Source of the DNA: a virus
Direction: 5' to 3' (one strand)
Length of the DNA stretch: 64,000 nucleotides
IMG/VR virus record: IMGVR_UViG_3300011271_000002
Coordinates: 40,423 to 104,422 of that record
A model generated the notes under the pieces. The model did no database searches and was not told where the DNA came from. It was given only the letters and a program-made list of their open reading frames with translations. The translations under genes were made by a program, and so were the position numbers. Below, one piece after another: positions 3,780 through 48,795 of the stretch (within the stretch, counting starts at the first letter, position 1; each line of letters opens with the position of its first letter).

Positions 3780-3780
3780 T

Positions 3781-4212: not shown

Positions 4213-4213
4213 C

Positions 4214-5182: not shown

Positions 5183-5219
5183 GGCTTAAAGGATAGTTTG
5201 ACACAAGCTTCGGCGAGAG

Positions 5220-5855: not shown

Positions 5856-5937
5856 ATGGTGATCACGGCTCTGAATCCATTGACTGTAGCGCCCAGCGAG
5901 GCATCTTCTGCTTCCTGGCCGACGAAATATTTATCGC

Positions 5938-6365: not shown

Positions 6366-6372
6366 AGCCGGA

Positions 6373-6402
6373 AGTGTATAACGATTGGCTACGCGATGTC
6401 AA
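6373..6402 (-). promoter_or_regulatory. Sigma70-type promoter, probably leaderless transcript
   Basis: TTGACA-N18-TACACT-N7-GTG. Confidence 0.65.
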
Positions 6403-6419
6403 GCTAGCAAGATTGGGGC

Positions 6420-10374: not shown

Positions 10375-10383
10375 GAGTTAATC

Positions 10384-10872: not shown

Positions 10873-10876
10873 GTGT

Positions 10877-29939: not shown

Positions 29940-30560
29940 TCAAGCCGCCCTGGTTTTGGCTCTGATCCTATCGAGAGTCTTTTCAAAAGCCTCAATTAGA
30001 TCTAGAAGTGTGTTGTACAGATCAGGCGAGGAGAAAAGTTCCAGTTCCGCCTGGACCTGTTCGCGGAGTTTCACTGATCTCGATTCTTCGATCATTCGCG
30101 ATCTCAAGGATTCGATCCGCAATCGGTCTTGATCGGATCGTTCCCATGCCCAATAAGCCCTGCCGTTTGGAGCGAAAATATGACAAGCGAGACAGAGTGT
30201 CCGGAGACATCCAGGACGATTATCTCGCCAACTATTCACATGATGCACCTGAAAGGAGTCCGGATGTAAATGCTTCAAATTCAGCGTTTGCGGACGAGCA
30301 CATTTTCGGCATTGATAACCATCGCGTGCCAGAATCAATGGGCGAAGTTTACCGAATTCCGATTGATGTAAGGATGCTTTGTCGCGAGGCTGCTTCTTCT
30401 CGTTTATATATCTGGCGAGACTGGGCTTACAGGATCGATTTCTCTTAAGTTGTTGAAACAACTTAGTTAGGCATGATTTGCGGAAGCGCAAAAAGTGCTT
30501 AACGTTTACGGTCGAGCGTCGGCATTGTTTAGGGTCGATCAAGCCGTCGGCGATGCTCAT
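29940..30560 (-). CDS. HNH endonuclease
   Basis: ILARDGYQCRKC, QVHH, NRPGCLRTLCLACH. Confidence 0.8.
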   Translation of the reverse strand: MSIADGLIDPKQCRRSTVNVKHFLRFRKSCLTKLFQQLKRNRSCKPSLARYINEKKQPRDKASLHQSEFGKLRPLILARDGYQCRKCARPQTLNLKHLHPDSFQVHHVNSWRDNRPGCLRTLCLACHIFAPNGRAYWAWERSDQDRLRIESLRSRMIEESRSVKLREQVQAELELFSSPDLYNTLLDLIEAFEKTLDRIRAKTRAA

Positions 30561-30891
30561 GAGTCTTCCTCCGCTTGAATCAGCAGGTCAACATTGGCGA
30601 TAAGGTTCTTCGCCGCCGAGCGCATCGCCTGTAAGTCACCATGCCTGTTTTTGGAAGCGATGATGCCTTTGAACAAATCCGCGATGATAAGCGAGTCCAT
30701 CCACGCCTGATCGAGTGCGTTTAAGGCATTGGGCTTGGGGGCCAACTGTACTTGATTCGGTACAGACTGTTCATTATGCTGAACAGCCGCGCTGTTAGCA
30801 TTGGACTTCTTGGCACGCGGTTTTTGCAGTAATTCATTATGCTGAATTGACTCGGGAGCGGTGGAGAAGCGAATAGAGCGTGAGCCGCCGG

Positions 30892-31263
30892 TCATGGTTT
30901 CGGATTCTCCGTCGGCGGCAAAACTACGAAAATAGTGCTCTCGTCTGGCATGGCCGCCCATGGCGTAGCTGGTGACAAAGGCACTCTCGCCAGCAATTCG
31001 ACGTGCAGGCGACGCATGGTATCGACCGCGTTCTGCATCAGTGCGAGCGCATCGGTGCAGAGTTCCAGAATTTTTCGGTTGCGCCTTTCAATGGCGCGAC
31101 TCGCTTCGTCGTGCTGGCCTTGCGAGTTCAATTGATGAACTTCCGCGACGTTGTCGGCGAACAGATGGATAAGGGTGATTGTCAGCGCACGTGCGTATTC
31201 ATTCGAGACTGGCTTGGCTGGAAGATCGCTCACGTTCGATTCACCCGCCAATAACATTACCAC
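30892..31263 (-). CDS. Hypothetical protein
   Basis: First ORF after the leftward promoter; start uncertain. Confidence 0.5.
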   Translation of the reverse strand: MVMLLAGESNVSDLPAKPVSNEYARALTITLIHLFADNVAEVHQLNSQGQHDEASRAIERRNRKILELCTDALALMQNAVDTMRRLHVELLARVPLSPATPWAAMPDESTIFVVLPPTENPKP

Positions 31264-31329
31264 ACAAGGCTTCTGTCGGCAATAGCTATTTTTTTTACGG
31301 TTGACAATTTCCAGACATCAGTTTAGCTT
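31254..31329. promoter_or_regulatory. Divergent sigma70-like promoters
   Basis: Minus strand TTGCCG-N17-TAATGT (31282-31254); plus strand TTGACA-N17-TAGCTT (31301-31329); AT-rich spacer. Confidence 0.55.
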
Positions 31330-31365
31330 CAAGAAGGAGCCAGGTTCCAGATCTGTTCACCCAAA

Positions 31366-31842
31366 TCAGATTATCTGACTTGGTTCTACCGGGCCCATCT
31401 TCGGCTGGGCCTGGTTCCCCGTTCTTCTCCTCGTGCTGCATCGACCCCGATGATACTGTTTTCGGCCGCAGGCGCATTTTCGCCCGCCGAAAAGATCTTC
31501 GAGCAGGCGATAGGCGTTTCTCGCGGTGTTCCGCCCTGCGCTGGCAGCCCGCGCTGCGCTTCTGATCGCCTCTCCCGCCAAGTAGCAGCTCTTGAAAATT
31601 CTCCACTGGTTAGCCAGTCGCATTCGCCTTTTGTGAAGCTTTGAGCCGGAAGGCGCGATAGCCGACGTAGAAAAGCGTTTACAAGCGTAGCACTGAAATC
31701 TCTGTGCGCCATTTCTCGCATGGCCGTATTTGCGAATGCGATGTCCAGCGAGCACGCAGGCGACAGGCGCACCTCGCGGAGCATCGCCGAGGCCAGCCGC
31801 GATCAGACTGTCTAGCTCGAGGAAAGCTGCCGAACGAGACAC
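31366..31842 (-). CDS. InsA-like zinc ribbon-HTH protein (no transposase catalytic domain)
   Basis: IRKYGHARNGAQRFQCYACKR, IRSAARAASAGRNTA, CACGRKQYHRGRC. Confidence 0.65.
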   Translation of the reverse strand: MSRSAAFLELDSLIAAGLGDAPRGAPVACVLAGHRIRKYGHARNGAQRFQCYACKRFSTSAIAPSGSKLHKRRMRLANQWRIFKSCYLAGEAIRSAARAASAGRNTARNAYRLLEDLFGGRKCACGRKQYHRGRCSTRRRTGNQAQPKMGPVEPSQII

Positions 31843-31846
31843 TAAC

Positions 31847-32560
31847 TCACCAGGTGCTTACGGCCACTCGCCGCCAGGTGCCAGTGTTGACGCATGAATA
31901 ATAGAAGGAGCTATCCACCGCGTATGAGCCTGATACGCACGCCGAGGCGGAGCTTGTCGGCACAGCCACTCTGATCCCGATCAAGGTCAGATCGGCCCCG
32001 AGAGTGGTGATGCCGCCGACGTCCGTCGTCGTCATGCCGGTGCCGGGTTGAATGGCCTTCGTTCCGATAAACGCGCGGAGATCGGTGCCTCCGTTTATAT
32101 CCCATGCGCCGTTCGTCGCCGTCCACTGAAAGAGCGGAACGGAATCGGGAGGGAACGAGTTTACGCCGAGAACGGAAGTGCAGCCCGCGCAGGCGATGGT
32201 CAAGTTATGCCCGACCGTCAGGTTTCCTTGCGGGGTTATGTAGAATAGTGCTGCGCCACTGCCGGCCGAGATCGTCGCTGTCGCGCTGGCGACCAGCGAG
32301 TAGACCAAGCTGCCGAAACGCACATTGCAGGGTGTGGGGATGGAACAGCGCGCGCCGATCGTGAGAATGTGCGGATCTTTGCCGACATCGAAATCCCCAA
32401 GCTGGCTCGCCATCGAAGCGCCGGCGCCGGAAATTGTCACGCTGGCTGGCGCGTTCTTGAGATCCTTAGCGCTGAATTGCGTCGGGCTCTGTGCGAAGGC
32501 CCCGGCGATCGCCAGTAGCAGAATCGAAAGCTTTAAGGATTGGTCTTGTAGTCGAAACAT
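31847..32560 (-). CDS. Signal-peptide protein with fibre-like C-terminal motif
   Basis: KLSILLLAIAGAFA/QSPTQ; C-terminal PTSSASACVSGSYAVDSSFYYSCVNTGTWRRVAVSTW. Confidence 0.75.
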   Translation of the reverse strand: MFRLQDQSLKLSILLLAIAGAFAQSPTQFSAKDLKNAPASVTISGAGASMASQLGDFDVGKDPHILTIGARCSIPTPCNVRFGSLVYSLVASATATISAGSGAALFYITPQGNLTVGHNLTIACAGCTSVLGVNSFPPDSVPLFQWTATNGAWDINGGTDLRAFIGTKAIQPGTGMTTTDVGGITTLGADLTLIGIRVAVPTSSASACVSGSYAVDSSFYYSCVNTGTWRRVAVSTW

Positions 32561-33279
32561 ATCCGGCCATCACCAGGTTGGAACCGTGCGGGGTTGATGA
32601 TCGTCACTGTCGTGCCCGTGAGTCCATAATCCTGCCCCGCTTCCCATTGCTGGCCATTCTCATGGACGTAGAGACTTCCGGAAACAAGAGAAGTTCCGGC
32701 CGCTAGTGCTAACGGATAAGAGCCACTGGCATTCGCCGCGTAGCACTCGCCGCGGACGGTCGATGGTGTAGCGGTCGGCGAGCTAGCCGGAAGCGCCTGC
32801 GGCTCCCAGCGGCCTGTGGTGGCGTTCCAAATGAGCGCCTGCCCTTCCTGTGGCGCATTCGGCGAAACAGGCTTGCCCTGAATCGCGAGCACGGCATTGA
32901 CACCCAGTGTGCCCTGCACGTCGCCGGTTAAGGCGAGCGCCTGCCAGAGCGCATTAACGCCATCGGTCAAGAGAGACTGCCCGACGTGTCCGGCCATCGG
33001 CGGCAGACCGGATCCTCCGGTCGGTGTCACGGTAAAGATTCCAGGTGTGCCGCCAAGCGCAGGCGCGGGCCCGGTCGGCGGCGTGAGCTTTGCGCCGACG
33101 AGAATCGCGCAGCCGCACTGATAGGCCATTCCGTTATTGACTGGCCAACAGGTAAACACCACAGGCTGTGGCGCGAGCGGCACGCAGGAGCCAGGCACGA
33201 TGTCTTTGATGTTGATTTGCGTGGGGGACTGAGCCTGGAGAGTCAAACAGAGCCATATCGAAATGAATGCTGATCTCAT
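32533..33279 (-). CDS. Signal-peptide protein with fibre-like segments
   Basis: MRSAFISIWLCLTLQA/QSPTQ; GQSLLTDGVNALW, GDVQG..V..IQGKPVS...GQALIWN. Confidence 0.75.
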   Translation of the reverse strand: MRSAFISIWLCLTLQAQSPTQINIKDIVPGSCVPLAPQPVVFTCWPVNNGMAYQCGCAILVGAKLTPPTGPAPALGGTPGIFTVTPTGGSGLPPMAGHVGQSLLTDGVNALWQALALTGDVQGTLGVNAVLAIQGKPVSPNAPQEGQALIWNATTGRWEPQALPASSPTATPSTVRGECYAANASGSYPLALAAGTSLVSGSLYVHENGQQWEAGQDYGLTGTTVTIINPARFQPGDGRICFDYKTNP

Positions 33280-33311
33280 GGAGCGCAGTCTAGCACGATC
33301 CGGCAATAACC

Positions 33312-34808
33312 TTAGTGTATCGCTCCTCCAGCCAACACGCTCTTGCTGGATAACTGTCCACCGCCCATCGGGCCGAACACCACCACGGTATTGGAAAACG
33401 TGCTCAGATAGACCTTGCCGTTCGCAACAGTGGGCGAGACATACTTGGCACAATTACCAACGGCGTCTCCAGCCTTGGCGGTTGAATCGTATAGTAGGGA
33501 CAGTGTCGTGCCATCGAAGGCCCGCAGCGCTCCGACCTGTGTAACGTCCAGATTGTATACTTGGCAGGAATTCACCCAAAGTATTCCATTGGAGGCTCCG
33601 TTTGAGCTGTAGGCCACTCCCGACATATAAGTCGGATACACATAGCTAGTAGCAGATGGAGTGGTCGTGAATGTCGTTCCGTTGTATGTGTTGCGTTGGA
33701 TTCCCGCTGGCAGAGCCGGATTGACATGCGAGTTATCAATAGTGTAGAGACCGTTGTTGGCAAAGGCTGAAGCGTCAAAAAGTTCTATCTGCCCTGCCCA
33801 ATCCTGCACCTGAGAACTTGGTGAGGCAGCAACCTGAGTATGTCCCATGTTGCTCTGGTCGGTTATCCACCAAACGCCGTTCTTGCCGCCGGACATCACG
33901 CGCGTGCCGACCAGGATTGGGCGTCCAGAACCTTGATCGGTATCGTTGGTATTGAGCGTGGCCCACCCGGAGTTGACGAGATAATCTTGGACAACCAGGG
34001 AAGAGTTTAGTTTGAGGATGCATTCACCGAAATTGTTGGTGCCGTCGAATGATCCGTTTCCAACTGTACAGTAGACATTTCCAGAACCATCGGCAGCCAT
34101 GCCTCCGCCCGCCTGCCAGATTCCGCCTCTTCCCCCGCTCGTGTTGACTGTGACAAACACGGCAGTTTGAGCAAGCGTCGTTGAATTGTAAGCAAATGCC
34201 CAGCCCTGCCATGTACCGCCGTCGTTGTAGCTGGCAAATCCGAAGTCCACCTTTCCACCGGATAACAGCAGGGCAGTCCTCGCCTGATGGCTGGTGGAAT
34301 CAAAGGTTAACCCTTGGGCGGTACCGGAAATAGTGACGGCGGCGTGGAATGTGGACCCATCGGAGATATTGAGCGCAAAAAGTTTCCACACATCGGTTGA
34401 GTTCACGCAGACTAGATAGATCACGCCAGCCGACGAATCGATGACTGGTGTGCTGGTGCAACCAACCTTGGCTGCCGAGAAGTTCGTATCCGTGGTGGTT
34501 TTCGGAGTGTCGAGATGTTGGCTCCAGATAGCTGATCCGCAGCCATCCGCATTAAAGGCGTAGACGGTATCGTTGTCGGTGGCCACAAAGATCCGATTCG
34601 GGCTCCCACTCATATATAGGACTTGTCCGTAAACCAAACCATCCACCGAGTACGAACATAGTTTGCCAAATGCCCCACTCACTTTGGCGGTAGTTAGTAT
34701 GGTCTCGGTTGTGGTCGCGTTTGTACGCGAATTGTCGTACTGACCGGTGAGTACATCGGCACACGCATGGCAGCCAAACAATAGAAAACTTACAAGCAAG
34801 GTCCTCAT
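33312..34808 (-). CDS. Secreted PQQ-like beta-propeller protein
   Basis: MRTLLVSFLLFGCHACA/DVLTGQYDNSRT; VYAFNAD..IW, TSTPVID, GGIWQAGGG, KYVSPTVANGKVY. Confidence 0.8.
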   Translation of the reverse strand: MRTLLVSFLLFGCHACADVLTGQYDNSRTNATTTETILTTAKVSGAFGKLCSYSVDGLVYGQVLYMSGSPNRIFVATDNDTVYAFNADGCGSAIWSQHLDTPKTTTDTNFSAAKVGCTSTPVIDSSAGVIYLVCVNSTDVWKLFALNISDGSTFHAAVTISGTAQGLTFDSTSHQARTALLLSGGKVDFGFASYNDGGTWQGWAFAYNSTTLAQTAVFVTVNTSGGRGGIWQAGGGMAADGSGNVYCTVGNGSFDGTNNFGECILKLNSSLVVQDYLVNSGWATLNTNDTDQGSGRPILVGTRVMSGGKNGVWWITDQSNMGHTQVAASPSSQVQDWAGQIELFDASAFANNGLYTIDNSHVNPALPAGIQRNTYNGTTFTTTPSATSYVYPTYMSGVAYSSNGASNGILWVNSCQVYNLDVTQVGALRAFDGTTLSLLYDSTAKAGDAVGNCAKYVSPTVANGKVYLSTFSNTVVVFGPMGGGQLSSKSVLAGGAIH

Positions 34809-35695
34809 GGATGTATCCATGCGATTCCTAAATTGTCGGCGTTGTTAGCAAATGCTCCAAGCGTGGCTGGTAGAGTCGTCCCGCTGATGGAATTTGCCAC
34901 TTTTCCAGCAACCCCAAAACTAGTATCTAACAGCAACTCGATGTTCCCCGTGGCATTCACCGCTCCGATAAGGCCTACGCCACTATCCGTGCAACCTATC
35001 GCAGAGTAGTAAAAGCCTGGGTTCAGAACAACCGTGGTGATCGTGGTGGTTTTGACCCCCGTGGCCGCACTGGAAATAGCCCCCGAGGTCAGAAGGAGGG
35101 TGTTGCCCGTATTGTCATATACACCGACCAAGCAATTACTTGCCGCAATGGCGGTCGTAACGAGGATGTCTATTTTGGTGACCGACAGGGTGAATGGAAG
35201 ATTAAATAGAGCGGCTTGAACGCTATTAGAGCCAGGGTTGTTCCAAGGCGTGCCGTTGATAGTGGCAATCGCTGGATTGCCGAACGGTAACAAAATACCG
35301 CAATTGCCGCTTGAGCAACTGAACCCGCCCGCCGCCGTAGTCTGCGGATTTTGCAATTCCCATTGCGTGCCAGTTGTGTTGTAGATCGCACAGGCTTGGG
35401 CAGTGGTGATAATGTCGTTAGCCACGAGAGCGCCGCCTGCCTTGACGATGGGGTGGGCTGTTAGGCCGTTGGGCGAGAAGCTCGGCGCGGCTGCGGTGTT
35501 GGCCGCTGTTGGCTTCCAGCAGACATGCAATCCGTCGTAGAGTCCGGTAATCGCTGGGGAGTAGGTGGCCGTCTGCGCCTGGGCTGTGCCGCCGCCAGCT
35601 ATCCAGTTATGAGCACCGTCCACCGTGCGGGATCCTTCCCTAGTCTGAGCAAGCGTTACTACCGAAACAACGAGGATGATTGCAACTTTTTTCAT
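34805..35695 (-). CDS. Signal-peptide protein with tail-fibre module
   Basis: MKKVAIILVVSVVTLA/Q; GGTAQAQTAT...KPTAANT...NGL...WELQNPQ. Confidence 0.8.
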   Translation of the reverse strand: MKKVAIILVVSVVTLAQTREGSRTVDGAHNWIAGGGTAQAQTATYSPAITGLYDGLHVCWKPTAANTAAAPSFSPNGLTAHPIVKAGGALVANDIITTAQACAIYNTTGTQWELQNPQTTAAGGFSCSSGNCGILLPFGNPAIATINGTPWNNPGSNSVQAALFNLPFTLSVTKIDILVTTAIAASNCLVGVYDNTGNTLLLTSGAISSAATGVKTTTITTVVLNPGFYYSAIGCTDSGVGLIGAVNATGNIELLLDTSFGVAGKVANSISGTTLPATLGAFANNADNLGIAWIHP

Positions 35696-35700
35696 AACGC

Positions 35701-36429
35701 TCAGTGAACCACAAAGACGCTTGGAGTGCTCACATAGCTCAGGGCCGACGTGTCCATTTCAACAGCGACAACGCCGAAAGCGCTCGCCGATGTTCCGCCC
35801 CAAGTAATTGTTGTGCCTGTGAACCCGCTATCACGAGTCTCATAGTCCGCTCCGGTGGAAGGCGTGTTGTATCCAGTGTCGGACTGCCGCGTCCAACTTG
35901 ACGTGACTGTAACGCCTCCTGTGTTGGTACCGTTGCCGACGCAACTGAGCGTTGGGTTTCCGGTGAGAGCCGAACCTGTAAAGGTAGTAGCGGGCGTGCC
36001 GGATGCAGCCTGGTTACTAGACACTTTGGATTGTTTAACGGCGCTGGAACCTTTTCGCGTCATGCCGCTTATGCGAGCCACCATTACGATCGCGCCGGTG
36101 GCGTTGCCGCCAGAAGTGTTGAACGTCACGGTCATTGAGGAATTCGCGGCGAGCGCGTTGGCCACAAAGACGTAGATCGTATCCGCGCTGCTGTTTTTTA
36201 ATGCAGTTGTGATCTGGGTGAAGCCTAGGGACTGGGAGTCGGTGAGACTGCCCGCAGTATTGCCGCTGGATATAACGCAGGCGTACAGGAGATCATTCGC
36301 GGCCGGCGTGAAGGAACCGCTCGCGTAGGTCGAAACGTTGGAAGTGCTGGCCGTAGAAACCCCAGCCGTCACCGCCGCTGCCGAGAGAGAAAGCGAGAGC
36401 GCGAGCAGTATCAACAAGCCGCGCCGCAT
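35701..36429 (-). CDS. Secreted Ser/Thr-rich beta protein
   Basis: MRRGLLILLALSLSLSA/A; SFTPAANDLL. Confidence 0.75.
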   Translation of the reverse strand: MRRGLLILLALSLSLSAAAVTAGVSTASTSNVSTYASGSFTPAANDLLYACVISSGNTAGSLTDSQSLGFTQITTALKNSSADTIYVFVANALAANSSMTVTFNTSGGNATGAIVMVARISGMTRKGSSAVKQSKVSSNQAASGTPATTFTGSALTGNPTLSCVGNGTNTGGVTVTSSWTRQSDTGYNTPSTGADYETRDSGFTGTTITWGGTSASAFGVVAVEMDTSALSYVSTPSVFVVH

Positions 36430-39400
36430 CACCTCATCACCATCCAGTTTAGGGTGATCGCTCCTGGAGTGACGGAAGACCCGGTGTTATTGCACGTCTT
36501 AAAATTCACATTTCCAGAAGTAGGATACGCGATGATAGTCAACATCCCGCTTGTGGATGGGACGTAGCCGGTAACCGCTGTCGGATCGCCGTTAAAGCTG
36601 GCTACCAGTACATCGGTCGATGCCACGCCGGTTGCGGTGGACGTGACTACAGTGGCGCACGCTCCGGAGGAAATCGCTCCAGTTCCCATCGCCGCCGTGC
36701 CGCTGGCAATAGTCTGACTGAGGATATTTGATCCGGCGGCCGTGGGGACCGTGCTGCCATTGATCGAGGTCAGGCTGGCTAGTGTCGAAACACCTGTAGC
36801 ATCCCCGTTCCCGACTCCCTGATGACTGGCGAGCCGAATCAACGGCAAGGTGGTAGAAAGCGTAGGGAATGCTGTTCCATCAGGGAATGTGGGCCAAGTT
36901 CCGCTGGTTGCGATCACCACACCAACCGTAATGCCCGTGCCGCATGGAGTAGTACCGCCGCTATCGGTCACCTTTCCGGCGGTCGTTCCCGCGCACACGG
37001 TATGACCTATCGTGACGGCCGCCGAAGCATTCACCGGTATTTCAGACGGGGCTGCAGCCACTGTGACTTGAATAGTGCTCGACTTTGAAAGCGCTATCCC
37101 GGCGATGACCTTGGGGGAGGCGCTGCAATCCGTCGCTGTCTTTGCAGTAGAGGTATAGCATTCAAGATTCCACTGAGTAACGGTGCCGCTCTGAGCGTAG
37201 GACTCCGCGACCAGGAGTAATCCTTGAAGGCCCGTACTGGTAGCACCGGTGCTAGATCCTGCCAGTAACTCAGCCGACCCACCCGCACTCGCTGTATTCG
37301 TAGCGGCATTCGATCCGCCGGCATGGAGCGCACCGCCGCCCTGTGAAGACGCTCCACCTGCGCCGGTTTCGTTCGCTCCGCGTAGCGTCACAGATCCAAG
37401 GGCCGAGTTTGCCGATGCGTCCTGGCCGCCGATATAAGTGAGCGCCTGTGTAGAGGTCGGCGATTGCAATTTGTTCGTTCCATCCTGAAAACTGGCTAAC
37501 TCAACGTATCCTTGTGACTCGATTCTAAGATGGGTATCGTAAGTCCCGCCTCCTCCGTTGGTAGTAAGAACCCGTCCCAGTATTTGTCCGATGAGAGGAA
37601 CCGTCGCGCCCGCATCGTGACAGTCGCCAGCGGTGGTGGTCGATATCTGTACATAATCGCCAGCGGTGGTAGCCCCGTCGTATATACACTGAGTCATTCC
37701 GGCTATGCTGATTTCGGCGGTGCTAGTAGTGCCACAGCCGGAAACGCAAATGCCTATAACGCCGTTCGTATCGGTAGTGAGTGGCGTAACTGCTGTACTT
37801 GGAGCTCCAGTCAATTTAGCCAACTTGTTCAGTGTCGTCCCCGTCGAACTGGCGTTCGTGTGCGTCATCGTGATCGCCATGTTGCCCACGCTGAGATTGG
37901 TATTCAGCGACGGAAAAACTAAGTTGGATAGAGCCGTGTTCGCGCCGCCAGTACCGCTTCCACTCTTAAGAAGCAAAACGTACCCCGCCGTGGCGGTATC
38001 CCAGTTGATTGTCACATCATACTGCGTCCCGCCCGCCGCCATCTCGCAATGCGCGTCCTTCGGCTGAAGCCACTGACGAGTTGTCCCTGATGTGACCAAG
38101 GTGGTAAAGGACAAATCGCAAGTGCCCAAACCGTGAACCGAGTTGGGGATGCTCCAAGTTGTAGCCGAAGCTTCGGCGGCGGCGTAAGATCCAGATCCGC
38201 CAGAGAAAGGCATCACGCCACCAGAGCGCTGGGTAAACGTATTAGCCGTGACGGCATTGGTGGAAAACGCCACCGTGAAGTCCACGAACAGAGCGGCGGT
38301 TAAATCGATGTTTGAGGATACGGCGGTATTTGTATCTACAAATACTGAGTCTGCTGTAGTCGTCAACGCGCCTAAATCGACAGCCAATGGACCATGGATC
38401 TCAAGGTTCCCCGAGGCCCCGGTGGTAGCAGTATAGCCGAGCACGGCAAGATTCCAGTTGTTATTCGTGACCGCTGCAATGGTGGCGGTGCTGACAATCG
38501 AAACGAGTGTCACCACTGTTCCCGATCCGCAGCCGCTTACGGTGCAAAGTTTGGTCTTGAGAGTAATCGTTGGAGTCTGGGCAGTTTGGGTTGAGTACGT
38601 TCCAGCCCCATCGAACAGAAACGGTTGACGGAGGTTATTCAAATACCCGGTCGGCAAGGCTAGTTCCATTAACGTCTGATCAGATGTCGTATTGGTATTC
38701 ACCGTCACAGCGCTGAGATTAACAACTGCACCACCAGGCGGAGTGATCGGGATATAACCGGACACACTGCTACCTGAAGTTTGCCACGTTACATTAACAT
38801 TACCCCCCGGCGCGGCGGGCGTGGCTGCGTTGAAGTTTGGACTAGAAACCGATCCGCCATTTACTGATACGCTGGTGCCGCCTCCTCCTCCACTGATCAC
38901 TTCGGCAAAGTAGTTAGTGCCATCTGACCAGACGCGCCAGCCAGTAGGAGCCGTTGCCGAGCCCGCCGTGCCGGTAAGATTCGCAGCCGCACCGTTGATG
39001 TTCTGTCCGCTACGCGCAAGTATCACAACGCCAGTTCCATAGTTCAAGATCGTGATGTAATTTCCATTCACAGGTTGAGAACCGGAAGCCACGAGCGTAA
39101 TGGTAAAAGTGCCAGAGGCCACGAGAATAGTTTTGTAGTTGGTGAAGTCGGCGGCTAGGACTTGGTAGGCAGCGGTTTGAGCGTTGGAGGCGAATGGAGC
39201 GCCGAGAACGACCTGGCGGCTTGAGTTCGTGGCTAGTAGAGCGGCAGACAAAGGAAGAATAAGACCATTGGTTCCCGTGATCTGATCGGAGATGTTGATG
39301 TCCACGCCGGATGCTACTACCTGCACTGCCCCGCCATTGTTGTTGTTCATCTTCCAACGATGCGCGGCGCTATCGGCATAGAATAGATCCGAGTTCGCCA

Positions 39401-39851
39401 CGCCAGCAGGCGCGGAGCCTTCCGGTTCCGACACTCCATGCCAACTACTTCCAGGGACTCCCGTCACCACACCCGTCATGTTCGTACCGTCATATGAGAA
39501 AATTTGTTCAGTGCAATTCGTGGTCCCAGCTGCAGGATCAGGCTGGCTACCGCTAAGGATGTTTGAAGAGAACGTGTATGTCCGACTACCGACTGAATCC
39601 TGGCACGAGCGTAGGAGATATAGCCCCGGTCCTTCCGTCGTGGCGCTGAAAGCCAGTGTGGTGTTACCCGCCCCGAAGTCCACCTCGCAGACATTCGTAT
39701 TTAGGAAATTACACGTTGTCGTCCCACCCGAATTGAACGTCGGCTTATTGACATTGCCGTTTGAGAACAATGATGGAACGCCGTTCAAGGTTAAAGTTTG
39801 AGCCGCCATCGGCACGCACGAGATGGTGAGTAGTATTAGGGCTTGGCGCAT
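36429..39851 (-). CDS. Large (1140 aa) signal-peptide, Thr/Gly/Ser-rich multi-module fibre-like protein
   Basis: MRQALILLTISCVPMAA/Q; several modules with paired Cys. Confidence 0.8.
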   Translation of the reverse strand: MRQALILLTISCVPMAAQTLTLNGVPSLFSNGNVNKPTFNSGGTTTCNFLNTNVCEVDFGAGNTTLAFSATTEGPGLYLLRSCQDSVGSRTYTFSSNILSGSQPDPAAGTTNCTEQIFSYDGTNMTGVVTGVPGSSWHGVSEPEGSAPAGVANSDLFYADSAAHRWKMNNNNGGAVQVVASGVDINISDQITGTNGLILPLSAALLATNSSRQVVLGAPFASNAQTAAYQVLAADFTNYKTILVASGTFTITLVASGSQPVNGNYITILNYGTGVVILARSGQNINGAAANLTGTAGSATAPTGWRVWSDGTNYFAEVISGGGGGTSVSVNGGSVSSPNFNAATPAAPGGNVNVTWQTSGSSVSGYIPITPPGGAVVNLSAVTVNTNTTSDQTLMELALPTGYLNNLRQPFLFDGAGTYSTQTAQTPTITLKTKLCTVSGCGSGTVVTLVSIVSTATIAAVTNNNWNLAVLGYTATTGASGNLEIHGPLAVDLGALTTTADSVFVDTNTAVSSNIDLTAALFVDFTVAFSTNAVTANTFTQRSGGVMPFSGGSGSYAAAEASATTWSIPNSVHGLGTCDLSFTTLVTSGTTRQWLQPKDAHCEMAAGGTQYDVTINWDTATAGYVLLLKSGSGTGGANTALSNLVFPSLNTNLSVGNMAITMTHTNASSTGTTLNKLAKLTGAPSTAVTPLTTDTNGVIGICVSGCGTTSTAEISIAGMTQCIYDGATTAGDYVQISTTTAGDCHDAGATVPLIGQILGRVLTTNGGGGTYDTHLRIESQGYVELASFQDGTNKLQSPTSTQALTYIGGQDASANSALGSVTLRGANETGAGGASSQGGGALHAGGSNAATNTASAGGSAELLAGSSTGATSTGLQGLLLVAESYAQSGTVTQWNLECYTSTAKTATDCSASPKVIAGIALSKSSTIQVTVAAAPSEIPVNASAAVTIGHTVCAGTTAGKVTDSGGTTPCGTGITVGVVIATSGTWPTFPDGTAFPTLSTTLPLIRLASHQGVGNGDATGVSTLASLTSINGSTVPTAAGSNILSQTIASGTAAMGTGAISSGACATVVTSTATGVASTDVLVASFNGDPTAVTGYVPSTSGMLTIIAYPTSGNVNFKTCNNTGSSVTPGAITLNWMVMR

Positions 39852-40174
39852 TCAAGCACGTTCTCTTTGGCAAACTTGGCTTCATCCAGTTGGCAGATTG
39901 CTCGAACTACTATCAGATAAGCATCGAATTCTCTTTCCGCCGCGATCCGCGCCGCCTGGGCATTTATTTCGTCGAGCCGCTTCTCCATCATTTTTGCCCG
40001 CTTGCTCCAATAGATGATCTGCATGGGAGCTAGGATGACAGGCGAATCTTTCTTGCTCTCCGGCGTGGCGACTGTTTCTTTCGTGGCGTCGGCCACCGGC
40101 TTTTCGTCCTGTTGCTTCGTTTGGCCAGCAAAGGATAGACTCGCACACAATACGAAAAATAGTAACCGTGTCAT
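39836..40174 (-). CDS. Small secreted helical / coiled-coil protein
   Basis: MTRLLFFVLCASLSFA/GQ. Confidence 0.7.
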   Translation of the reverse strand: MTRLLFFVLCASLSFAGQTKQQDEKPVADATKETVATPESKKDSPVILAPMQIIYWSKRAKMMEKRLDEINAQAARIAAEREFDAYLIVVRAICQLDEAKFAKENVLECAKP

Positions 40175-40183
40175 TCTCGGTTC

Positions 40184-41209
40184 CTACATGTTGATGACGG
40201 AGATGCCGGTAGCGTAAGAATTGGTTCCGTCGTCGAGAAACGATACAACTGTACACTTCGACGCCGTAAGACCGATGTCTGGATGACCCAACATCGTGGC
40301 TGGCCAAACGAAGGTAAAGTTCCCAGTTCCATTTTGGCAGACTTTGATTATTGGCTCAAGGCCGTTCGAATGATTCGATACCGTCGCTCCGGTGACGTTG
40401 CCGGTCAGTGTGATGGTGAAAATGTCCGACAAACTTAGATCAAAATTAGGCGTGGCGGAAAATGACACCGTCGTGCTCTTGTGTGCCATGTTGCCTGGCA
40501 GAATGATGGCAGTAGCCAACGAGATCACCGGAGTTGTACCTCCAGTGCTCGCGATTTGATTGCTCGTACCGTTGACTGCTGTCACGGAACCACCAGCGCT
40601 ACCACAAGCCCCTGACTGAGGATTGAATAGTTGGAATTGAGTTCCATCATAAATGACTTCGGCCACGGCCGCCGTGATCAGATCATTCGCCACAAGAGCC
40701 GTAGTTCCGCACTTCGTGATGGCCGTGGCGGTAAGACCATTGACCGCTAGCGTCGGAGCCGCTCCGGTATTGGCCGCATTCGGCTTGAAATAAAGCGTGA
40801 GACCGGTCGTCAACGCCGTAGCGGCAGGAGCTAGCGTTGCGGTCTGAGCTTGCGCCGTGCCACCACCCGCGATGTAGTCGGTTGCGTTGAGATCAGAGAA
40901 ACTCTTGCCAGCTGGATCGGCTCCCGTCACGCCACTCAAGATAGCTAGGTTCGCAAGCGCTACGCCGCCGATCGCATTGCCAGAAGCTGCGTTAACCGAT
41001 ACGCTATGATTCGCCGCCCCGCTATTGACGTTGCAGGTAGAACCTAAGGTACAGGTCTGGCCATTGACGGTAGTGGAAGCATTACTCAGCGAGCCGTTGG
41101 TAACACTAGCCAGCGTTTGATTTGGGACGCCATTGATGGTGCCGGTACCTTGTGCGAAAGCCGCTATTGCGATTAGCTGCAACGAGAAGGCGAGACGAAG
41201 AGAACGCAT
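40184..41209 (-). CDS. Signal-peptide protein with two tail-fibre modules
   Basis: MRSLRLAFSLQLIAIAAFA/Q; GGTAQAQTAT module and ITLTGNVT...CQ..TG..TF.W module. Confidence 0.8.
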   Translation of the reverse strand: MRSLRLAFSLQLIAIAAFAQGTGTINGVPNQTLASVTNGSLSNASTTVNGQTCTLGSTCNVNSGAANHSVSVNAASGNAIGGVALANLAILSGVTGADPAGKSFSDLNATDYIAGGGTAQAQTATLAPAATALTTGLTLYFKPNAANTGAAPTLAVNGLTATAITKCGTTALVANDLITAAVAEVIYDGTQFQLFNPQSGACGSAGGSVTAVNGTSNQIASTGGTTPVISLATAIILPGNMAHKSTTVSFSATPNFDLSLSDIFTITLTGNVTGATVSNHSNGLEPIIKVCQNGTGNFTFVWPATMLGHPDIGLTASKCTVVSFLDDGTNSYATGISVINM

Positions 41210-41231
41210 TTTGTTTTGTATCCTTCTTGTG

Positions 41232-42029
41232 TCATTGATTGATGAGACCCTTAGCGTAGATTTGATCACCATCCGAAGTGAAATCCTGTGTTGAACATTT
41301 GCTTGCTATCAATCCTACCCCAAAACCGCCGTGCACGCGCGCGGCCCAAGCGAAGGTGTGATTTCCGGCCGGGTCCTGGCAGATCGTTATGGTGATCGTC
41401 TGTCCAGCCAGAACGTTGGGGAAAGTCTGATTCGTCACGTTGCCGGTCAATGTTATTTTGAAGGCGGTCGCCACGCTGAGATCGAATACCGGTGTGGCAG
41501 AATAAGGCACAGTTAAAAAAGTTGGCGGGCTCTGCGGTCCCCATTGCACGACGCCGCCTATCACCTCGAGCGCATAACCATTCGATCCAATCGGCGTCAG
41601 TTGATTTATGTTCAGCGCGAACGGCGTGGCGGGTAAGGCGTTGACCTGAACTCCGGAAAGATCCAGCGTCGTCCCCGTATCCGGCACGCTCCAGAAATCG
41701 CGGTACACGATCCCGTTCGTGTGGTACTCCGCAACGTATCCGAGCGGCGCCGTGGTGGTGCCCGTGGCCGTACTTCCGATCGTTGGTTGCAGATTGACAT
41801 CGAGGTATCCGGTGTTCGCTCCGGATGTGGGGATATCGTATCGGAAAACTGTGGTGGTGACCGCTACGCCACCGGCCGTCCGGAAGGGACGATTTGCCTG
41901 GATCAACACGTAGCCTGTCGCCGGTGCGCTGCCCGGGCCCGCGACATTGAGCAATTGGCGAATGTGCGTGATCGCGCCCAATGGCATGGAGACGCTCAGA
42001 AGAGCAAGTACTGCCAGCCTGTGACGCAT
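41232..42029 (-). CDS. Signal-peptide protein with fibre-anchor-like N-terminus and ITLTGNVT module
   Basis: MRHRLAVLALLSVSMPLGA/I; SD GGAGG. Confidence 0.8.
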   Translation of the reverse strand: MRHRLAVLALLSVSMPLGAITHIRQLLNVAGPGSAPATGYVLIQANRPFRTAGGVAVTTTVFRYDIPTSGANTGYLDVNLQPTIGSTATGTTTAPLGYVAEYHTNGIVYRDFWSVPDTGTTLDLSGVQVNALPATPFALNINQLTPIGSNGYALEVIGGVVQWGPQSPPTFLTVPYSATPVFDLSVATAFKITLTGNVTNQTFPNVLAGQTITITICQDPAGNHTFAWAARVHGGFGVGLIASKCSTQDFTSDGDQIYAKGLINQ

Positions 42030-42101
42030 CGGACGCGCGACCTCCAGTCGGGATTCTTAATTACTCAGTCTACGCTAAGATCGGAACTGGAGGAACATCC
42101 C

Positions 42102-42272
42102 ATGTGGCTCTCGGTGCTCGTGTTCGTGCTCGGCCTCGCTCTTTTCGTGACGGTCGATCAGGCGAAATATCCAAACTTGAAGGAAATCGGAAGGATAATG
42201 TTATTTTCCGGCCTGTTCGTGGCGCTGCTGAAATTCGCTTGGCCGCTGAGTGAGGCAGTGCGGAGATTTTAG
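42102..42272 (+). CDS. Small two-TM membrane protein (56 aa)
   Basis: SD GGAGG; MWLSVLVFVLGLALFV...EIGRIMLFSGLFVALL. Confidence 0.7.
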   Translation: MWLSVLVFVLGLALFVTVDQAKYPNLKEIGRIMLFSGLFVALLKFAWPLSEAVRRF

Positions 42273-42459
42273 TCGGCAAGATCCGCTTCGCCGTGACTCG
42301 CGTTCCAGTGCGGAATCTCGCCACAGGCCGCGCAGTGCACGAACTTGCCCACGGTACCGCCGGGCGCATCGTGGCCGCATTCCAGTGCCACTCTTCGCGG
42401 CGTCATCGACGGGCACTCGCATTTCGTGGATCGCCGGTGGCAGGCAATGCAGAACGCGA

Positions 42460-42882
42460 CTACTTCGCGTAGGAGTTTGAAGGCGCCGGATTTGAAGCCC
42501 ATTTGCTATTCCTCTGAATCTGCCTGTGTTTGATGATTAGTTCCGCCATCACCTCGGGATTTCTGTAGACGATCCTGCTTTTGCATCGCTGGCGCATCGC
42601 ATCGTCGATCTCTTGAACTCCTCGAATCAAATTGCAGTAACGATGGGCCAGTTTAAGATTCTCGCTGACCGTCTGCCCTTTCTTAAAGCGCGGCACAACG
42701 TGATCGAGGGAAGCGCGAACATCGTGGCTCAACGGAAGATGAGAAAGAAACCTACCACGAAATAGCATCGGCAGTTCGCAGATCCAGCACAGCTCGCCGT
42801 GTTCGTGGCGCATCCGCACGAGATTCGAGCGCAGACTTTTCAGCCGATCATCCTCAACTGTTCCGGCCAGTGCTCCGCGCAA
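42460..42882 (-). CDS. HNH endonuclease
   Basis: CWICELP, SLDHVVPRFKKG..SENLKLAHRYCNLIRG. Confidence 0.85.
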   Translation of the reverse strand: MRGALAGTVEDDRLKSLRSNLVRMRHEHGELCWICELPMLFRGRFLSHLPLSHDVRASLDHVVPRFKKGQTVSENLKLAHRYCNLIRGVQEIDDAMRQRCKSRIVYRNPEVMAELIIKHRQIQRNSKWASNPAPSNSYAK

Positions 42883-43436
42883 ATGAATGAGCGGTCATCG
42901 CCAAGGTCGCGGATGTGTCGGAAGCAGCCTGGCTGTCCGCATTGGACGCGCTGTAGGGTCAGGACGACGTCGCTCTTTTTCCAGTAATATTCGTCGACGC
43001 GGCGGTCGCCACCAGACTTGTTCCGCTTCCTCCGGACGATAACGCGCATCGTGTGATCCATGACAACTCCCTGCTGATTGAGGTCCGCGATTTGCAGAAT
43101 GTGGCCCTGGCGAGTTCGCTTCATATTTGAGCATTCGTCGCCAACCTGGAGAAGATCCACGCGCTTGGGCAGGAACAATTCAACCGGCCAGATACAGCGG
43201 CCATCGGCGGCGGCCGCGCACTGGTAGCAGAGCTGATGTTTGCATGTGCAATCGGTGAAAGTGCCCGTCATCGAAACCGTCATCGCGGTGCAAAACTGGA
43301 AAATCTGGCCATGCTCGCGCGGGCAGCGATGGCAGAATGGACGGTCGCTTCGACAGATCGCGCAGAAGGCGGAAGTCATTTGCCTTCCAGGATGCCTCTG
43401 ATCTTGTGAATCCGACATGTGTGATCGAAACTGCAC
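42840..43436 (-). CDS. Cys-rich hypothetical protein
   Basis: Multiple CxxC motifs; start probably ATG 43379. Confidence 0.55.
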   Translation of the reverse strand: MQFRSHMSDSQDQRHPGRQMTSAFCAICRSDRPFCHRCPREHGQIFQFCTAMTVSMTGTFTDCTCKHQLCYQCAAAADGRCIWPVELFLPKRVDLLQVGDECSNMKRTRQGHILQIADLNQQGVVMDHTMRVIVRRKRNKSGGDRRVDEYYWKKSDVVLTLQRVQCGQPGCFRHIRDLGDDRSFICAEHWPEQLRMIG

Positions 43437-43798
43437 GGATCGCCATCTTCGCAGCGATCTAAATTGACGTGATCTCCAATTCTTGAGGCCAGATCGGTAG
43501 GCGGTAAGGCAGGAACGCCACTGCCGCCGCGCGGTGGGACTGGCACCGTCGCCATTTCTACCGCCGCATCAATCGGGCCATCGTGCTCGCGCCCAGCGAG
43601 CCTGTCGATCACCCACGGATCGCGCGCGGCCGGCCACACCTTCGCGGACCGCATCAGCCCGCCGCCGTCCGAGTGCGTCGTCCAACCGAAGACTCGCTCG
43701 GCGCCGGTTTGCGCATCGAAGAAGCGGACCTCGTAGCGCTGGCCGCGGTCACCGCTTATGACGGCAAGAAAACTACACTCGTTTTCAGTCTTCGACAT
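43376..43798 (-). CDS. Hypothetical protein
   Basis: DRGQRYEVRF...VFGW. Confidence 0.6.
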   Translation of the reverse strand: MSKTENECSFLAVISGDRGQRYEVRFFDAQTGAERVFGWTTHSDGGGLMRSAKVWPAARDPWVIDRLAGREHDGPIDAAVEMATVPVPPRGGSGVPALPPTDLASRIGDHVNLDRCEDGDPCSFDHTCRIHKIRGILEGK

Positions 43799-44111
43799 CG
43801 CGCTCTCCAGGGCCGAAAGGATCGAATTGCGTCAGGATGTCAACCGCGAACCGTTTGGCGGAATCGACGTCTATGAACATAAAACCGTCGCACTGGTTGA
43901 GAATTTTTGAGGGTACGCCGCAGCGGAATTCTACTTGGTAATCATATTCATCCTCGGTAGGTTCCTTTATGTCCGCGAGGATTCTGCCGCTGGCATGCAC
44001 CAGGATGTGATTTGAGAATTTATCACCATCACGATCACGTCCGGATTTGAACTGCCAGTCAAGCTCGGCTGCATCGAGGCGGCGGGATTCACTCCCTATT
44101 TTTTCTTCCAT
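43785..44111 (-). CDS. Hypothetical protein
   Basis: Acidic 108-aa ORF with SD GGAGG. Confidence 0.6.
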   Translation of the reverse strand: MEEKIGSESRRLDAAELDWQFKSGRDRDGDKFSNHILVHASGRILADIKEPTEDEYDYQVEFRCGVPSKILNQCDGFMFIDVDSAKRFAVDILTQFDPFGPGERDVED

Positions 44112-44355
44112 TTCAAGCCTCCTGTCAGCCCATGTGTCAGGGCCCGCGCACCGCGTTGCTTTCGCGCATCCGAAGCGGCGCTCGAGTCTCGCGCTCTATC
44201 GATTCCCGATCTACGCATCCAGGCCATGCCGCGAGAGTGCGTCTGGCAGCGCCCGGTGATTGGATCGGCTGGGAACACACAGCCCTTTACCGCCGTGCAG
44301 CGCGGGCCGGGATCGACCGGGGAGTCCGCACGCATCGCTGGGGCCATGTTGGGCA

Positions 44356-45231
44356 TTAGGCAGTTCTCCATGCTGCGTGGATGATCGCCGGCCTAGCCCA
44401 GCGCCGCTGAAATCGGCGCCACTCCAGACCAGGCCTATACCTCTCCGCGCTGGCAGTCTCCGGATCCCATAGCATCGCGTGTGGAGTGAAACCGATTTCC
44501 AGCATTTCGCGCAATCGTTTTTCGGCCGCCGGAAAAGTGTCTTTGGGGTAGCCGATTAGAACGTAAACGCGTAAACGATGCGAACGCGCGGTGAAGCCGG
44601 CCGCGAGTAGCCGATCAGCCGCACTCTTCAACGTCTCGAATGGATCGCCAGGATCATAGGCGAAGAAACAATTCGGGCGTGGCTTCAGATCGGCCAGTAG
44701 CCCGACCTGATAGTCCTCTAACGCCAAGGCCTCGAGCCCACCCGTGAATTCTACCCGTCGACGTTGGCGTGTAAGCATAGCGAACACCGCGCGCACGTGT
44801 GGCTCTGGACACGCTAGCAGATTATCATCGAGGATGTTCCAGCCGTCCTGAATCGGTAGCAGACGTGGAATTGGATCTCTTTTCCACACTGAACAGAACC
44901 AGCAACGTCGCGGGCAGCCACGCGACGTGAAGGTATAGCCGGTCTTGATGTACCGCCCTGGAATGAATTCGGCGCCGGGATCTTCGTACGCCACGCCGCC
45001 AAGCTTGATCGTCGCCACATGCCGCCATTCTTCGGCGAGCCGCTCAGCTCGCGCCTTGTCGGCGGTGAAGGTCACGTCGATGTGCACCTCGTCGGCCTCA
45101 ACGAACAGGTTTGGCGGGCCGAAAAAGGCCATCGCATCATCGGGGCTCGCCTTCGTTCGACGCGGGAACACGCGGGCCATAAGCTTCGGCTCAGGCGGCT
45201 GGCCCAGGATGGGAAAAGTTGGAATAATCAT
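44356..45231 (-). CDS. Radical SAM superfamily protein
   Basis: TSRGCPRRCWFC (CxxxCxxC), ILDDNLL, YVLIGY. Confidence 0.85.
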   Translation of the reverse strand: MIIPTFPILGQPPEPKLMARVFPRRTKASPDDAMAFFGPPNLFVEADEVHIDVTFTADKARAERLAEEWRHVATIKLGGVAYEDPGAEFIPGRYIKTGYTFTSRGCPRRCWFCSVWKRDPIPRLLPIQDGWNILDDNLLACPEPHVRAVFAMLTRQRRRVEFTGGLEALALEDYQVGLLADLKPRPNCFFAYDPGDPFETLKSAADRLLAAGFTARSHRLRVYVLIGYPKDTFPAAEKRLREMLEIGFTPHAMLWDPETASAERYRPGLEWRRFQRRWARPAIIHAAWRTA

Positions 45232-48097: not shown

Positions 48098-48394
48098 TCA
48101 CGGCAGGCTCTCCCAGAACGCTTCGAAGCGCTCTGCAGTCAGCCCGCCGGTCGCCGGGTAGAGTAGAACGCGGTCCTTCGAATGAAACACGCACTGACCA
48201 GCCGAATTGAAGATCTGCACCTCGCGGCCTCGCCTGATGTCGTCGCGCACGAAGGCCCGCTCAAGTCCCGAGATTATCTCGACCGCGCGGTCGGTTGGCG
48301 TGCGCCGCGTGTAGCTCGTGCCGACAGGCCTGTCCGAGTTCTCGTGAAAGGTCAAGACAGTGAGGCGGCCGGCGCGTGAGTCGCTATAGGTCAC
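48098..48394 (-). CDS. Hypothetical protein
   Basis: GTGA-coupled ORF. Confidence 0.6.
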   Translation of the reverse strand: MTYSDSRAGRLTVLTFHENSDRPVGTSYTRRTPTDRAVEIISGLERAFVRDDIRRGREVQIFNSAGQCVFHSKDRVLLYPATGGLTAERFEAFWESLP

Positions 48395-48795
48395 TGCTTA
48401 CGCCGACTTGCCCATCTAGCCGAACACATTCCTTTATGTTGAGCCGGGGCGCCACACGAACATGGAGGGCGGGGAATATACTTTCCGAGCAATTTGTAAA
48501 CATGACAAATTCTTCGACGCGATAAACCAGAGAGGCGCGCCGCTTCATAAAAGCCAACGCCGGCCCGATAGAGAGGCAGAACATCGATAGCGCATGCAAA
48601 CAGATTCCGTCTGACGTACCGGGCATTCTGGATGTACGTTTTTCCACAATACGCGCATCGATATCTTTGCCTATGGCCGTATTTTCTGGTCTTGTGAAAT
48701 CCAATCTTCCAGAAATGATGAGTGCAGTTGGACCCGAAGCGAGCGGACTCAAGGCGATGCAGCAATTGCTGCTTGTGCTGCTGATCTAACTCCAA
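48391..48795 (-). CDS. InsA-like zinc ribbon-HTH protein (paralog of 31366..31842)
   Basis: RKYGHRQRYRCAYCGKTY, EAARLSGLSRRRI, CSCGAPAQHKGMC. Confidence 0.65.
   Translation of the reverse strand: MELDQQHKQQLLHRLESARFGSNCTHHFWKIGFHKTRKYGHRQRYRCAYCGKTYIQNARYVRRNLFACAIDVLPLYRAGVGFYEAARLSGLSRRRICHVYKLLGKYIPRPPCSCGAPAQHKGMCSARWASRRKQ

Follow-up and report, generated by a model that had tools for sequence, protein, structure and literature searches.

Can a tailed phage send fibre-like proteins out of the infected cell by the secretory route of its host, and what would such proteins do there? The question is raised by nine consecutive genes, P1 to P9, in the 104,422-bp genome of a soil phage (IMG/VR record IMGVR_UViG_3300011271_000002) whose host is probably a member of the Acidobacteriota, and of which bases 40423-104422 make up the 64,000-nucleotide window analysed here. 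The nine open reading frames (ORFs) all lie on the minus strand, fill window positions 31847-42029 and are either 4-33 nt apart or overlapping (P3/P4, P4/P5, P6/P7 and P8/P9); an initial annotation had proposed that all of them carry signal peptides and that most resemble tail fibres. It is very probable that the nine proteins are exported via the host Sec pathway and signal peptidase I (SPI), with disulfides, and that most of them have a fibre architecture. That the exported proteins act on the surface polysaccharide or receptors of the infected cell is the reading that we favour, albeit tentatively.

Textbook tail fibres fold in the cytoplasm. An extracytoplasmic folding route has not been described for the fibres of tailed phages, and the block is furthermore unusually large, comprising nine genes and 10 kb outside the late operon. 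The usual expectation for phage proteins is apparent from a study of Bacteroides phages, where the absence of a signal peptide separates phage targets of diversity-generating retroelements from surface-displayed bacterial ones (PMC6199706). In the literature searched on signal peptides of tail fibres, no direct precedent was found beyond the phages of Porphyromonas gingivalis, which encode five proteins with Q-rule leaders whose function is unknown and for which an effect on the outer membrane is considered possible (Matrishin et al. 2023, PMC10367356). These likewise have host-style SPI leaders exposing Gln, but they are single genes of unknown fold and do not form a nine-gene operon of fibre modules.

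Export signals and cysteines

Each of the nine N-termini consists of a basic n-region, an uncharged hydrophobic core of 7-15 residues and small residues at positions -3 and -1, as is characteristic of Sec/SPI substrates. A heuristic demanding a basic n-region, a 9-residue uncharged window averaging 2.2 or more on the Kyte-Doolittle scale and a small-x-small site picks all nine (9/9), as compared to 7/143 other ORFs of the 104-kb genome (Fisher p = 1.2e-10), and these seven include membrane helices, miscalled starts and a homing endonuclease ORF. The leaders of the initial annotation are thus all recovered, with two start codons corrected, namely that of P2 to the ATG at 41209 (not 41272) and that of P8 to the ATG at 33279 (not the TTG at 33453); the true start of P7 may be Met5, at 34808. 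Gln is found at +1 in P2, P4, P6, P8 and P9, and possibly in P3, and the mature start QSPTQ is common to P8 and P9, in agreement with what had been noticed at the outset. Signals for other routes were also looked for. No lipobox ([LVI][ASTVI][GAS]C) could be discerned by eye, the closest being a loose L-F-G-C in P7 whose Cys is absent from the homologue consensus; the only RR, in P5 (MMRRGLL), lacks the rest of the twin-arginine (Tat) motif S/T-R-R-x-F-L-K; and no PEP-CTERM or type IX secretion system-type sorting domain was seen by eye at the C-termini.

The leaders are moreover retained among relatives, since a crude test finds them in 77/120 homologues of P2, 106/150 of P4 and 74/120 of P9, and a small-x-small/Q site is present in 60/72, 86/102 and 67/69 of these leader-bearing homologues, respectively. 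According to PMC5837995, Gln at +1 is a trait specific to Bacteroidetes. A crude test on 400 kb of the acidobacterial genome G282 (L102-L121) found small-x-small/Q in 26/71 leader-like ORFs (for instance VAQA/QT, LLA/QS and AFA/QP), and as Gln at +1 is thus common in an acidobacterial chromosome, the leaders of the block can be regarded as host-style. Judged by these sequences, the "Bacteroidetes Q-rule" for SPI substrates may extend to the Acidobacteriota.

The cysteines provide an independent view of the same issue. The nine proteins are rich in Thr, Ser, Gly and Ala, and after the predicted cleavage P1 to P9 contain 2, 6, 2, 18, 2, 6, 8, 6 and 6 Cys, all even numbers, which agrees with the Thr/Ser/Gly-rich composition and paired cysteines initially reported; the leaders hold 0-2 Cys, and the even parity in P3, P4 and P8 depends on one Cys falling within the leader. 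For comparison, the three leaderless fibre-like genes that follow the J-like central fibre gene of this phage encode 3, 0 and 0 Cys and J itself 12. P9 has 277 matches, several of them from metagenome-assembled genomes (MAGs) of Bryobacteraceae, and among the 102 homologues with a recognisable leader and, behind it, a Q..(D/N)L start, the mature Cys number exactly 8 in 99, the leader Cys varying from 0 to 3 and the totals from 7 to 11. Furthermore, C167 and C202 (P2 numbering), located in a module common to P2 and P6, are almost always either both there or both missing, and the pair is found in 33/60 proteins with a leader or anchor as against 6/36 without (p = 2.3e-4), some of the latter six looking like truncated starts. 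The parity, the fixed number of Cys in P9 homologues and the link between the Cys pair and an export signal make it unlikely that the leaders arose by chance, and together with the retention of leaders in homologues they support the export that had been proposed.

Fibre modules and a beta-propeller

For P2 (40184..41209; 341 aa; leader ...AIAAFA/QGTG), AlphaFold2 (AF2), given 45 sequences, returns two confident domains, 110-200 and 245-340, each with a predicted local distance difference test score (pLDDT) >90. The first is a bead module of ~90 aa, which is conserved at 60-70% identity over hundreds of proteins and has the consensus Y.AGGGTAQAQT...AANTAAAPTLAVNGLTA..ITKCGTTALVANDL...IYDGT.FQL.NPQ. 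It matches residues 235-339 of the tail fibre gp47 of Pseudomonas phage Pa193 both in Foldseek (89 columns, 34% identity, prob 1.0) and in VIA (Z 9.4, root-mean-square deviation (rmsd) 3.7, 99 aligned, 28% identity). The paper on Pa193 (PMC11456595) describes the gp47 shaft, residues 1-340, as trimeric and composed of three "beads on a string", and as we read that description, 235-339 includes "bead III". The second domain, a C-terminal beta-sandwich, matches the C-terminus of the tailspike gp83 of Acinetobacter phage Solidus (Z 9.2, rmsd 2.4, 87 aligned), the "chaperone-substrate complex" 6o38 (Z 7.4), CBA120 TSP4 79-180 (Z 7.3) and further chains from phage baseplates or spikes. A BFVD search with P2 yields 233 matches at E<=1e-3, the foremost of them named "tail fiber protein". 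Modelling of P2 100-341 in three copies predicts an intertwined trimer with a score of 0.94, as compared to 0.26 for the best of 3 controls, a pLDDT of 91 and agreement between runs in at least 90% of contacts. The mark in question was reached by 20/30 proteins solved as one-chain pairs and by 1/23 solved as single chains, and as the P2 run used its own alignment and three copies, unlike this calibration, the pass may reflect likeness to solved fibres.

Several of the other proteins draw modules from the same pool as P2, namely P1, P4, P6 and P9, and the module sharing initially suggested is evident from BLASTP. In P6 (34805..35695; 296 aa; leader MKKVAIILVVSVVTLA/QTR) the bead module follows directly behind the leader, residues 4-123 being 53% identical to P2 106-224, and the C-terminal part resembles phrog_25864 (E 1e-4). 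P1 (41232..42029; 265 aa; leader MRHRLAVLALLSVSMPLGA/ITH) ends in a P2-type tip domain (~145-262), since P2 268-357 is 49% identical to P1 173-262 (both comparisons in the numbering of the 362-aa P2 ORF); PF26209 is recorded on some homologues of this tip. In P9 (31847..32560; 237 aa; leader ...AIAGAFA/QSPTQ) the C-terminal 70 aa resemble the C-terminus of phrog_17312, a "tail protein" (E 1.5e-9), and like the P1/P2 tip this C-terminus recurs in other leader-bearing proteins. P4 (36429..39851; 1140 aa; leader ...CVPMAA/QTL) is a mosaic of widely shuffled modules, at least 6 in a chain, each of which is common to a different subset of 5078 clusters (50% identity), 626 of them at E<=1e-30; leaders are found in most of the best 150 members of this large family, and in the Atlas P4 gives weak viral leads only (score 0.84). 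Many other proteins end in the same C-terminal domain, among them leaderless ones and a protein that bears the bead as well, and the domain is therefore a fibre tip rather than a sorting signal.

The description "mostly tail-fibre-like" can accordingly be upheld for P1, P2, P4, P6 and P9 on the basis of folds, the predicted trimer and modules, but it does not extend to the remaining four. P8 (32533..33279; 248 aa; leader MRSAFISIWLCLTLQA/QSPTQ) has a weak match to phrog_11585 (E 0.004) and nothing more, and P5 (35701..36432; 243 aa; leader MMRRGLLILLALSLSLSAAA/VT), the start of which overlaps the P4 stop, is Ser/Thr-rich and has no family match. P3 (39836..40174; 112 aa; leader ...SLSFAG/QTK) is small, charged and helical, with a charged linker followed by a helical C-terminal half, and no homologue was found; its place between two fibre-like genes might be taken to recall fibre-assembly chaperones, by analogy.

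P7 (33312..34820; 502 aa; leader ...LFGCHACA/DVL) is an 8-bladed PQQ-like beta-propeller (AF2 predicted template-modelling score (pTM) 0.89) and a member of a secreted bacterial family rather than a fibre. Its template-modelling (TM) scores are 0.87-0.91 to Acidobacteriota and Verrucomicrobiota clusters in the Atlas and 0.5-0.65 to PQQ-like propellers (Foldseek E 1e-15 to 1e-12), and the solved structures closest to it in fold are BamB, tetrathionate hydrolase and periplasmic quinoprotein dehydrogenases, all of them extracytoplasmic. Indeed P7 shares both fold and, by prediction, extracytoplasmic location with BamB, quinoprotein alcohol dehydrogenases, tetrathionate hydrolase and YxaL, but at 12-16% identity only. 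No Pfam PQQ family is recorded on P7 itself at E<=0.1, and PF13360 is found on some homologues. These number 677, many of them on megabase bacterial contigs, and fusions to RicinB, CBM6, F5/8C, legume-lectin or Ig-like domains are frequent among them.

At E<=0.1 no Pfam family is found on any of the nine apart from one chance-level match on P6, which includes the absence of a C-terminal YadA-type beta-barrel as in trimeric autotransporters, and NCBIfam was equally uninformative. The PDB, searched by sequence with P2, P4, P5, P7, P8, P9 and the module profile, gave nothing significant, and tblastn of P2, P4 and P7 against 50,697 GenBank phage records gave no match, although the low-complexity filter may hide some.

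Possible sites of action

The products of the block are very probably exported by the host Sec pathway, have their leaders cleaved by SPI, mostly exposing Gln, and fold in the periplasm with disulfide bonds. P1, P2, P4, P6, P9 and perhaps P8 are then very probably trimeric beta-fibres drawn from the fibre module pool of tailed phages, and P7 is a beta-propeller whose secreted family has links to carbohydrate-binding modules. Independently of virion assembly in the cytoplasm, the exported proteins might bind, mask or remodel exopolysaccharide (EPS), lipopolysaccharide (LPS) or receptors, and the outcome could be less superinfection, fewer progeny lost on debris or an easier release. Phages are well known to encode envelope proteins by which receptors are masked or superinfection is excluded, examples being T5 Llp, phi80/N15 Cor and T4 Imm/Sp. 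These are exported to the envelope and act on receptors, as we infer for the block, but they are small lipoproteins or membrane proteins without homology to it and are not fibre-like trimers.

Action at the surface is favoured, firstly, by the location of the block. It lies about 20 kb from the tail module, as had been stated initially, behind an opposite-strand gene and in surroundings of DNA-metabolism genes. The tail module (3-11545) comprises tail completion genes, a tape measure gene and a leaderless gene for a J-like central fibre (phrog_5616, E 1.8e-63), and it has leaderless fibre-like genes of its own. Two leaderless genes downstream of J, before the start of the window (genome 34908-36974; L096:8909-10975), have a common 127-aa N-terminus (61% identity) and different C-termini, as would be expected of interchangeable receptor-binding fibres that use one anchor. 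By BLASTP none of the nine proteins resembles the J-like or fibre-like genes of the tail module, and no attachment domain is shared with leaderless fibres.

The same arrangement is furthermore found in a second phage. On the 63-kb viral contig L093, leader-bearing proteins of 271, 323, 784 and 519 aa adjoin homologues of the methylase and HerA-like genes of the present phage, the 784-aa protein being 80% identical to P4 over 195 aa and the 519-aa protein 34% identical to P7 over its full length, so that both the pairing of a P4-like protein with a P7-like one behind it and the non-structural neighbourhood recur. Leader-bearing versions of the bead are found on fewer viral contigs than leaderless ones (L001, L002 and L093), and on the 119-kb L001 three consecutive leader proteins lie directly behind a sigma-factor-like gene. 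This sigma-factor-like or helix-turn-helix gene (L001:9099-9662) overlaps the start of the first of the three, which are giant proteins, and hints at a dedicated regulator for such blocks. PHROG annotation leaves most neighbours blank on L001, L002 and L094, the last having one structural-like ORF upstream, and a search of viral contigs with the flanking SMC-like gene as query found no relative.

Finally, P7 relatives are tied to carbohydrate-binding modules and the host versions of the modules are found in polysaccharide loci. Among 185,579 species genomes the bead module occurs in 14 loci, 11 of them in Acidobacteriota MAGs; in one locus (L080) it lacks a leader and belongs to a prophage tail module, and in other host loci it is part of leader-bearing giants 1200-3300 aa in length. 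At two of these loci the surroundings are ordinary chromosomal ones, and here the leader-bearing bead protein adjoins either a Polysacc_synt flippase, methyltransferases and PMT_2 (L085:6782-17929) or MBOAT and a GDSL-like gene (L099:7377-10988). The proteins of these two loci measure 1000-1300 aa, and a Laminin_G_3 domain is present in one of them and a PKD domain in another.

Several points weigh against action at the surface. Cleavage and localisation of the nine proteins are predictions, and the step to surface glycans or receptors draws on two host-locus neighbourhoods and the fusions of P7 relatives. The modules themselves are genuine parts of virions, and at 68/76 of its loci in IMG/VR the bead sits in leaderless proteins of ~310-420 aa. 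One such protein (L027) directly follows homologues of the distal tail and J proteins of the present phage, the canonical fibre position, and leaderless relatives of the block modules likewise follow J/tail genes directly in other phages. Ten kb would moreover be a large investment for exclusion or masking, and trimeric fibres would need to cross the outer membrane before lysis. Lastly, the cultured Cellulophaga phage phi10:1 (KC821618) has five leader-bearing proteins, gp091-gp095, in tail-fibre position, the first four of which are annotated "structural protein" from tandem mass spectrometry (MS/MS). Like the block these are consecutive leader genes with Q at +1 and one enzyme-like member (a pectate lyase; cf. 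P7), but they lie directly after the tail genes, the host belongs to the Bacteroidota and no sequence similarity was seen; no discussion of them was found in the literature searched.

By analogy, phi10:1 would favour the chief rival explanation, which we consider rather unlikely but by no means far-fetched: the nine may be exported virion appendages that mature in the periplasm, with disulfides and pyroglutamate, and dock on the particles at lysis as accessory receptor-binding fibres or enzymes. Envelope rupture by holin, endolysin and spanin would bring exported proteins to the cytoplasmic particles, and since T4 particles without fibres and P22 heads without spikes can acquire the missing fibres or spikes in vitro, late docking is biochemically plausible. 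The modules and the predicted trimer are of the virion-fibre type, and a fast-shuffling mosaic family, such as that of P4 with its thousands of clusters, is typical of receptor-binding proteins. Indeed the block shares with virion fibres and tailspikes (Pa193 gp47, Solidus gp83, the N-terminal domains of CBA120 TSP4 and 6o38) the folds, the 28-34% identity to gp47 235-339, the predicted homotrimer and the module shuffling, but it differs in its Sec leaders, its conserved paired Cys, its location outside the tail module and the lack of a recognisable baseplate-attachment domain. The distance to the tail genes, among genes of early or middle type, and the presence of separate leaderless fibre-like genes in the tail module are in poor agreement with this explanation. 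Leaderless fibres have no attachment domain in common with the block, and where they resemble P2 the similarity mostly sets in no earlier than about residue 100. P7 furthermore stems from a bacterial secreted family, host chromosomal homologues function without any virion, and detection by mass spectrometry in virion preparations could reflect co-purifying secreted proteins. The broader notion that tailed phages of several phyla, here of Acidobacteriota, send part of their host-recognition gear through Sec and assemble virions in two compartments that join at lysis is to our minds also doubtful. It would, if correct, change the understanding of tailed-phage assembly, just as action at the surface would constitute an unrecognised phage way of remodelling or masking host polysaccharide in soil; predictors of receptor-binding proteins, recombinant expression (oxidising compartment) and host-range engineering would need to allow for exported fibres.

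It is improbable that the genes are host-type surface cargo (a moron) derived from surface-protein or EPS loci of Acidobacteriota, giving the carrier adhesion or matrix functions without a direct role in infection. A precedent for fibre-like adhesins exists in PblA and PblB of the Streptococcus mitis phage SM1, which are leaderless and reach the surface of their Gram-positive host by phage lysis. PblB has been studied as an adhesin (PMC4508584), and like the block proteins PblA and PblB are fibre-like and end on a bacterial surface, but they differ in having no leader and in taking the lysis route; the Q-rule leader proteins of P. gingivalis phages (PMC10367356) can be cited alongside them. 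The leaders match host style, P7 relatives are common in bacterial genomes, and the giant chromosomal proteins of Acidobacteriota (L083, L085 and L099) have the same bead (52-61% identity), a leader and Q at +1, though they are 1200-3300 aa long, non-phage, found beside polysaccharide-synthesis or O-acylation genes and rare. Among evenly sampled Acidobacteriota the bead is found in 3/301 genomes, including two already known as carriers, and the P9 family in 1/301, as opposed to hundreds to thousands of clusters in metagenomes. No tyrosine or serine recombinase (integrase) was found in the complete, terminal-repeat-bearing genome, which therefore gives no sign of a long-term carrier state, and the related phage L093 keeps a similar block.

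Still harder to sustain is the idea that the proteins are not exported at all and are ordinary cytoplasmic virion fibres, whose hydrophobic N-termini are due to chance or serve as assembly helices or membrane anchors, and we regard it as very unlikely. Signal-peptide-like calls do occur on phage structural proteins such as capsid proteins (PMC10367356), the leader heuristic picked a homing endonuclease as well, and some homologues have longer N-terminal anchors instead of cleavable leaders. Against this stand nine leaders in a row with canonical n-h-c regions and A-x-A/Q sites, the cysteine evidence given above and the uniformly extracytoplasmic fold relatives of P7.

The block belongs to the phage, and the fusion of a host island to a phage contig, which related modules in host genomes and Logan contigs of three runs ending at 31898-31927 might suggest, is practically excluded by the direct terminal repeats (IMG/VR) and 100% completeness (CheckV) of the record, phage genes on either side of the block, a similar block in L093, four soil-metagenome runs from three studies in which 100% of the words sampled from the block are present and the depth is even over block and flanks, and two Logan contigs, 31898-45000 and, in a fifth run, 31480-32023, which bridge both junctions. 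Some of the soil runs holding the block may themselves be the source of the assembly, and no RNA datasets are listed among them. The genome also encodes a large terminase (phrog_9, E 1.4e-94) and, elsewhere, a YqaJ exonuclease, a HerA-like ATPase, HNH genes and a DNA methylase.

Neighbouring genes and minor observations

The block is separated from an upstream minus-strand HNH gene by the only plus-strand gene of the region, 42102-42272, which is divergent from it and encodes a 56-aa protein with two hydrophobic helices (MWLSVLVFVLGLALFV...) behind a strong GGAGGA Shine-Dalgarno sequence; it could be a membrane partner, an immunity protein or a regulatory protein. As this gene splits the block from the genes upstream, the block needs a promoter of its own in the 72-nt intergenic region 42030..42101 between P1 and 42102-42272, where no significant sigma-70 consensus was found. 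The promoter-like sites initially ascribed to the block are not supported, since its 4 sigma-70-like sites compare with 6.8 +/- 3.0 in shuffles and are thus not commoner than chance, and the scan for terminators was not above chance either. At the other end, the gene at 31366-31842 (minus strand) begins 4 nt past the P9 stop and is therefore probably co-transcribed with the block. It and 48391-48795 (minus strand) encode small proteins that are rich in Cys, are paralogous to each other (29.5% identity) and have a C..C motif resembling that of zinc ribbons.

The Logan contig breaks of three runs coincide at 31898-31927, in the last codons of P9 (YYSCVNTGTWRRV...), and one run has several low-depth variant contigs at this break, which suggests a short sequence common to other genomes in the sample and possibly a recombination junction for C-terminal modules. 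The plus-strand GC skew (window 30001-42000) is positive over the block and over the J-like gene (1-4000) and negative elsewhere, in keeping with the codon content of fibre-like genes, which is rich in Thr/Ser/Ala and poor in acidic residues, and this should not be read as a sign of foreign origin. Just upstream of the tail genes there are two family-2 glycosyltransferases (12473-13444 and 14037-15014, minus strand), and given these and the very Ser/Thr-rich fibre-like proteins, glycosylation of the virion or of the surface is a possibility.

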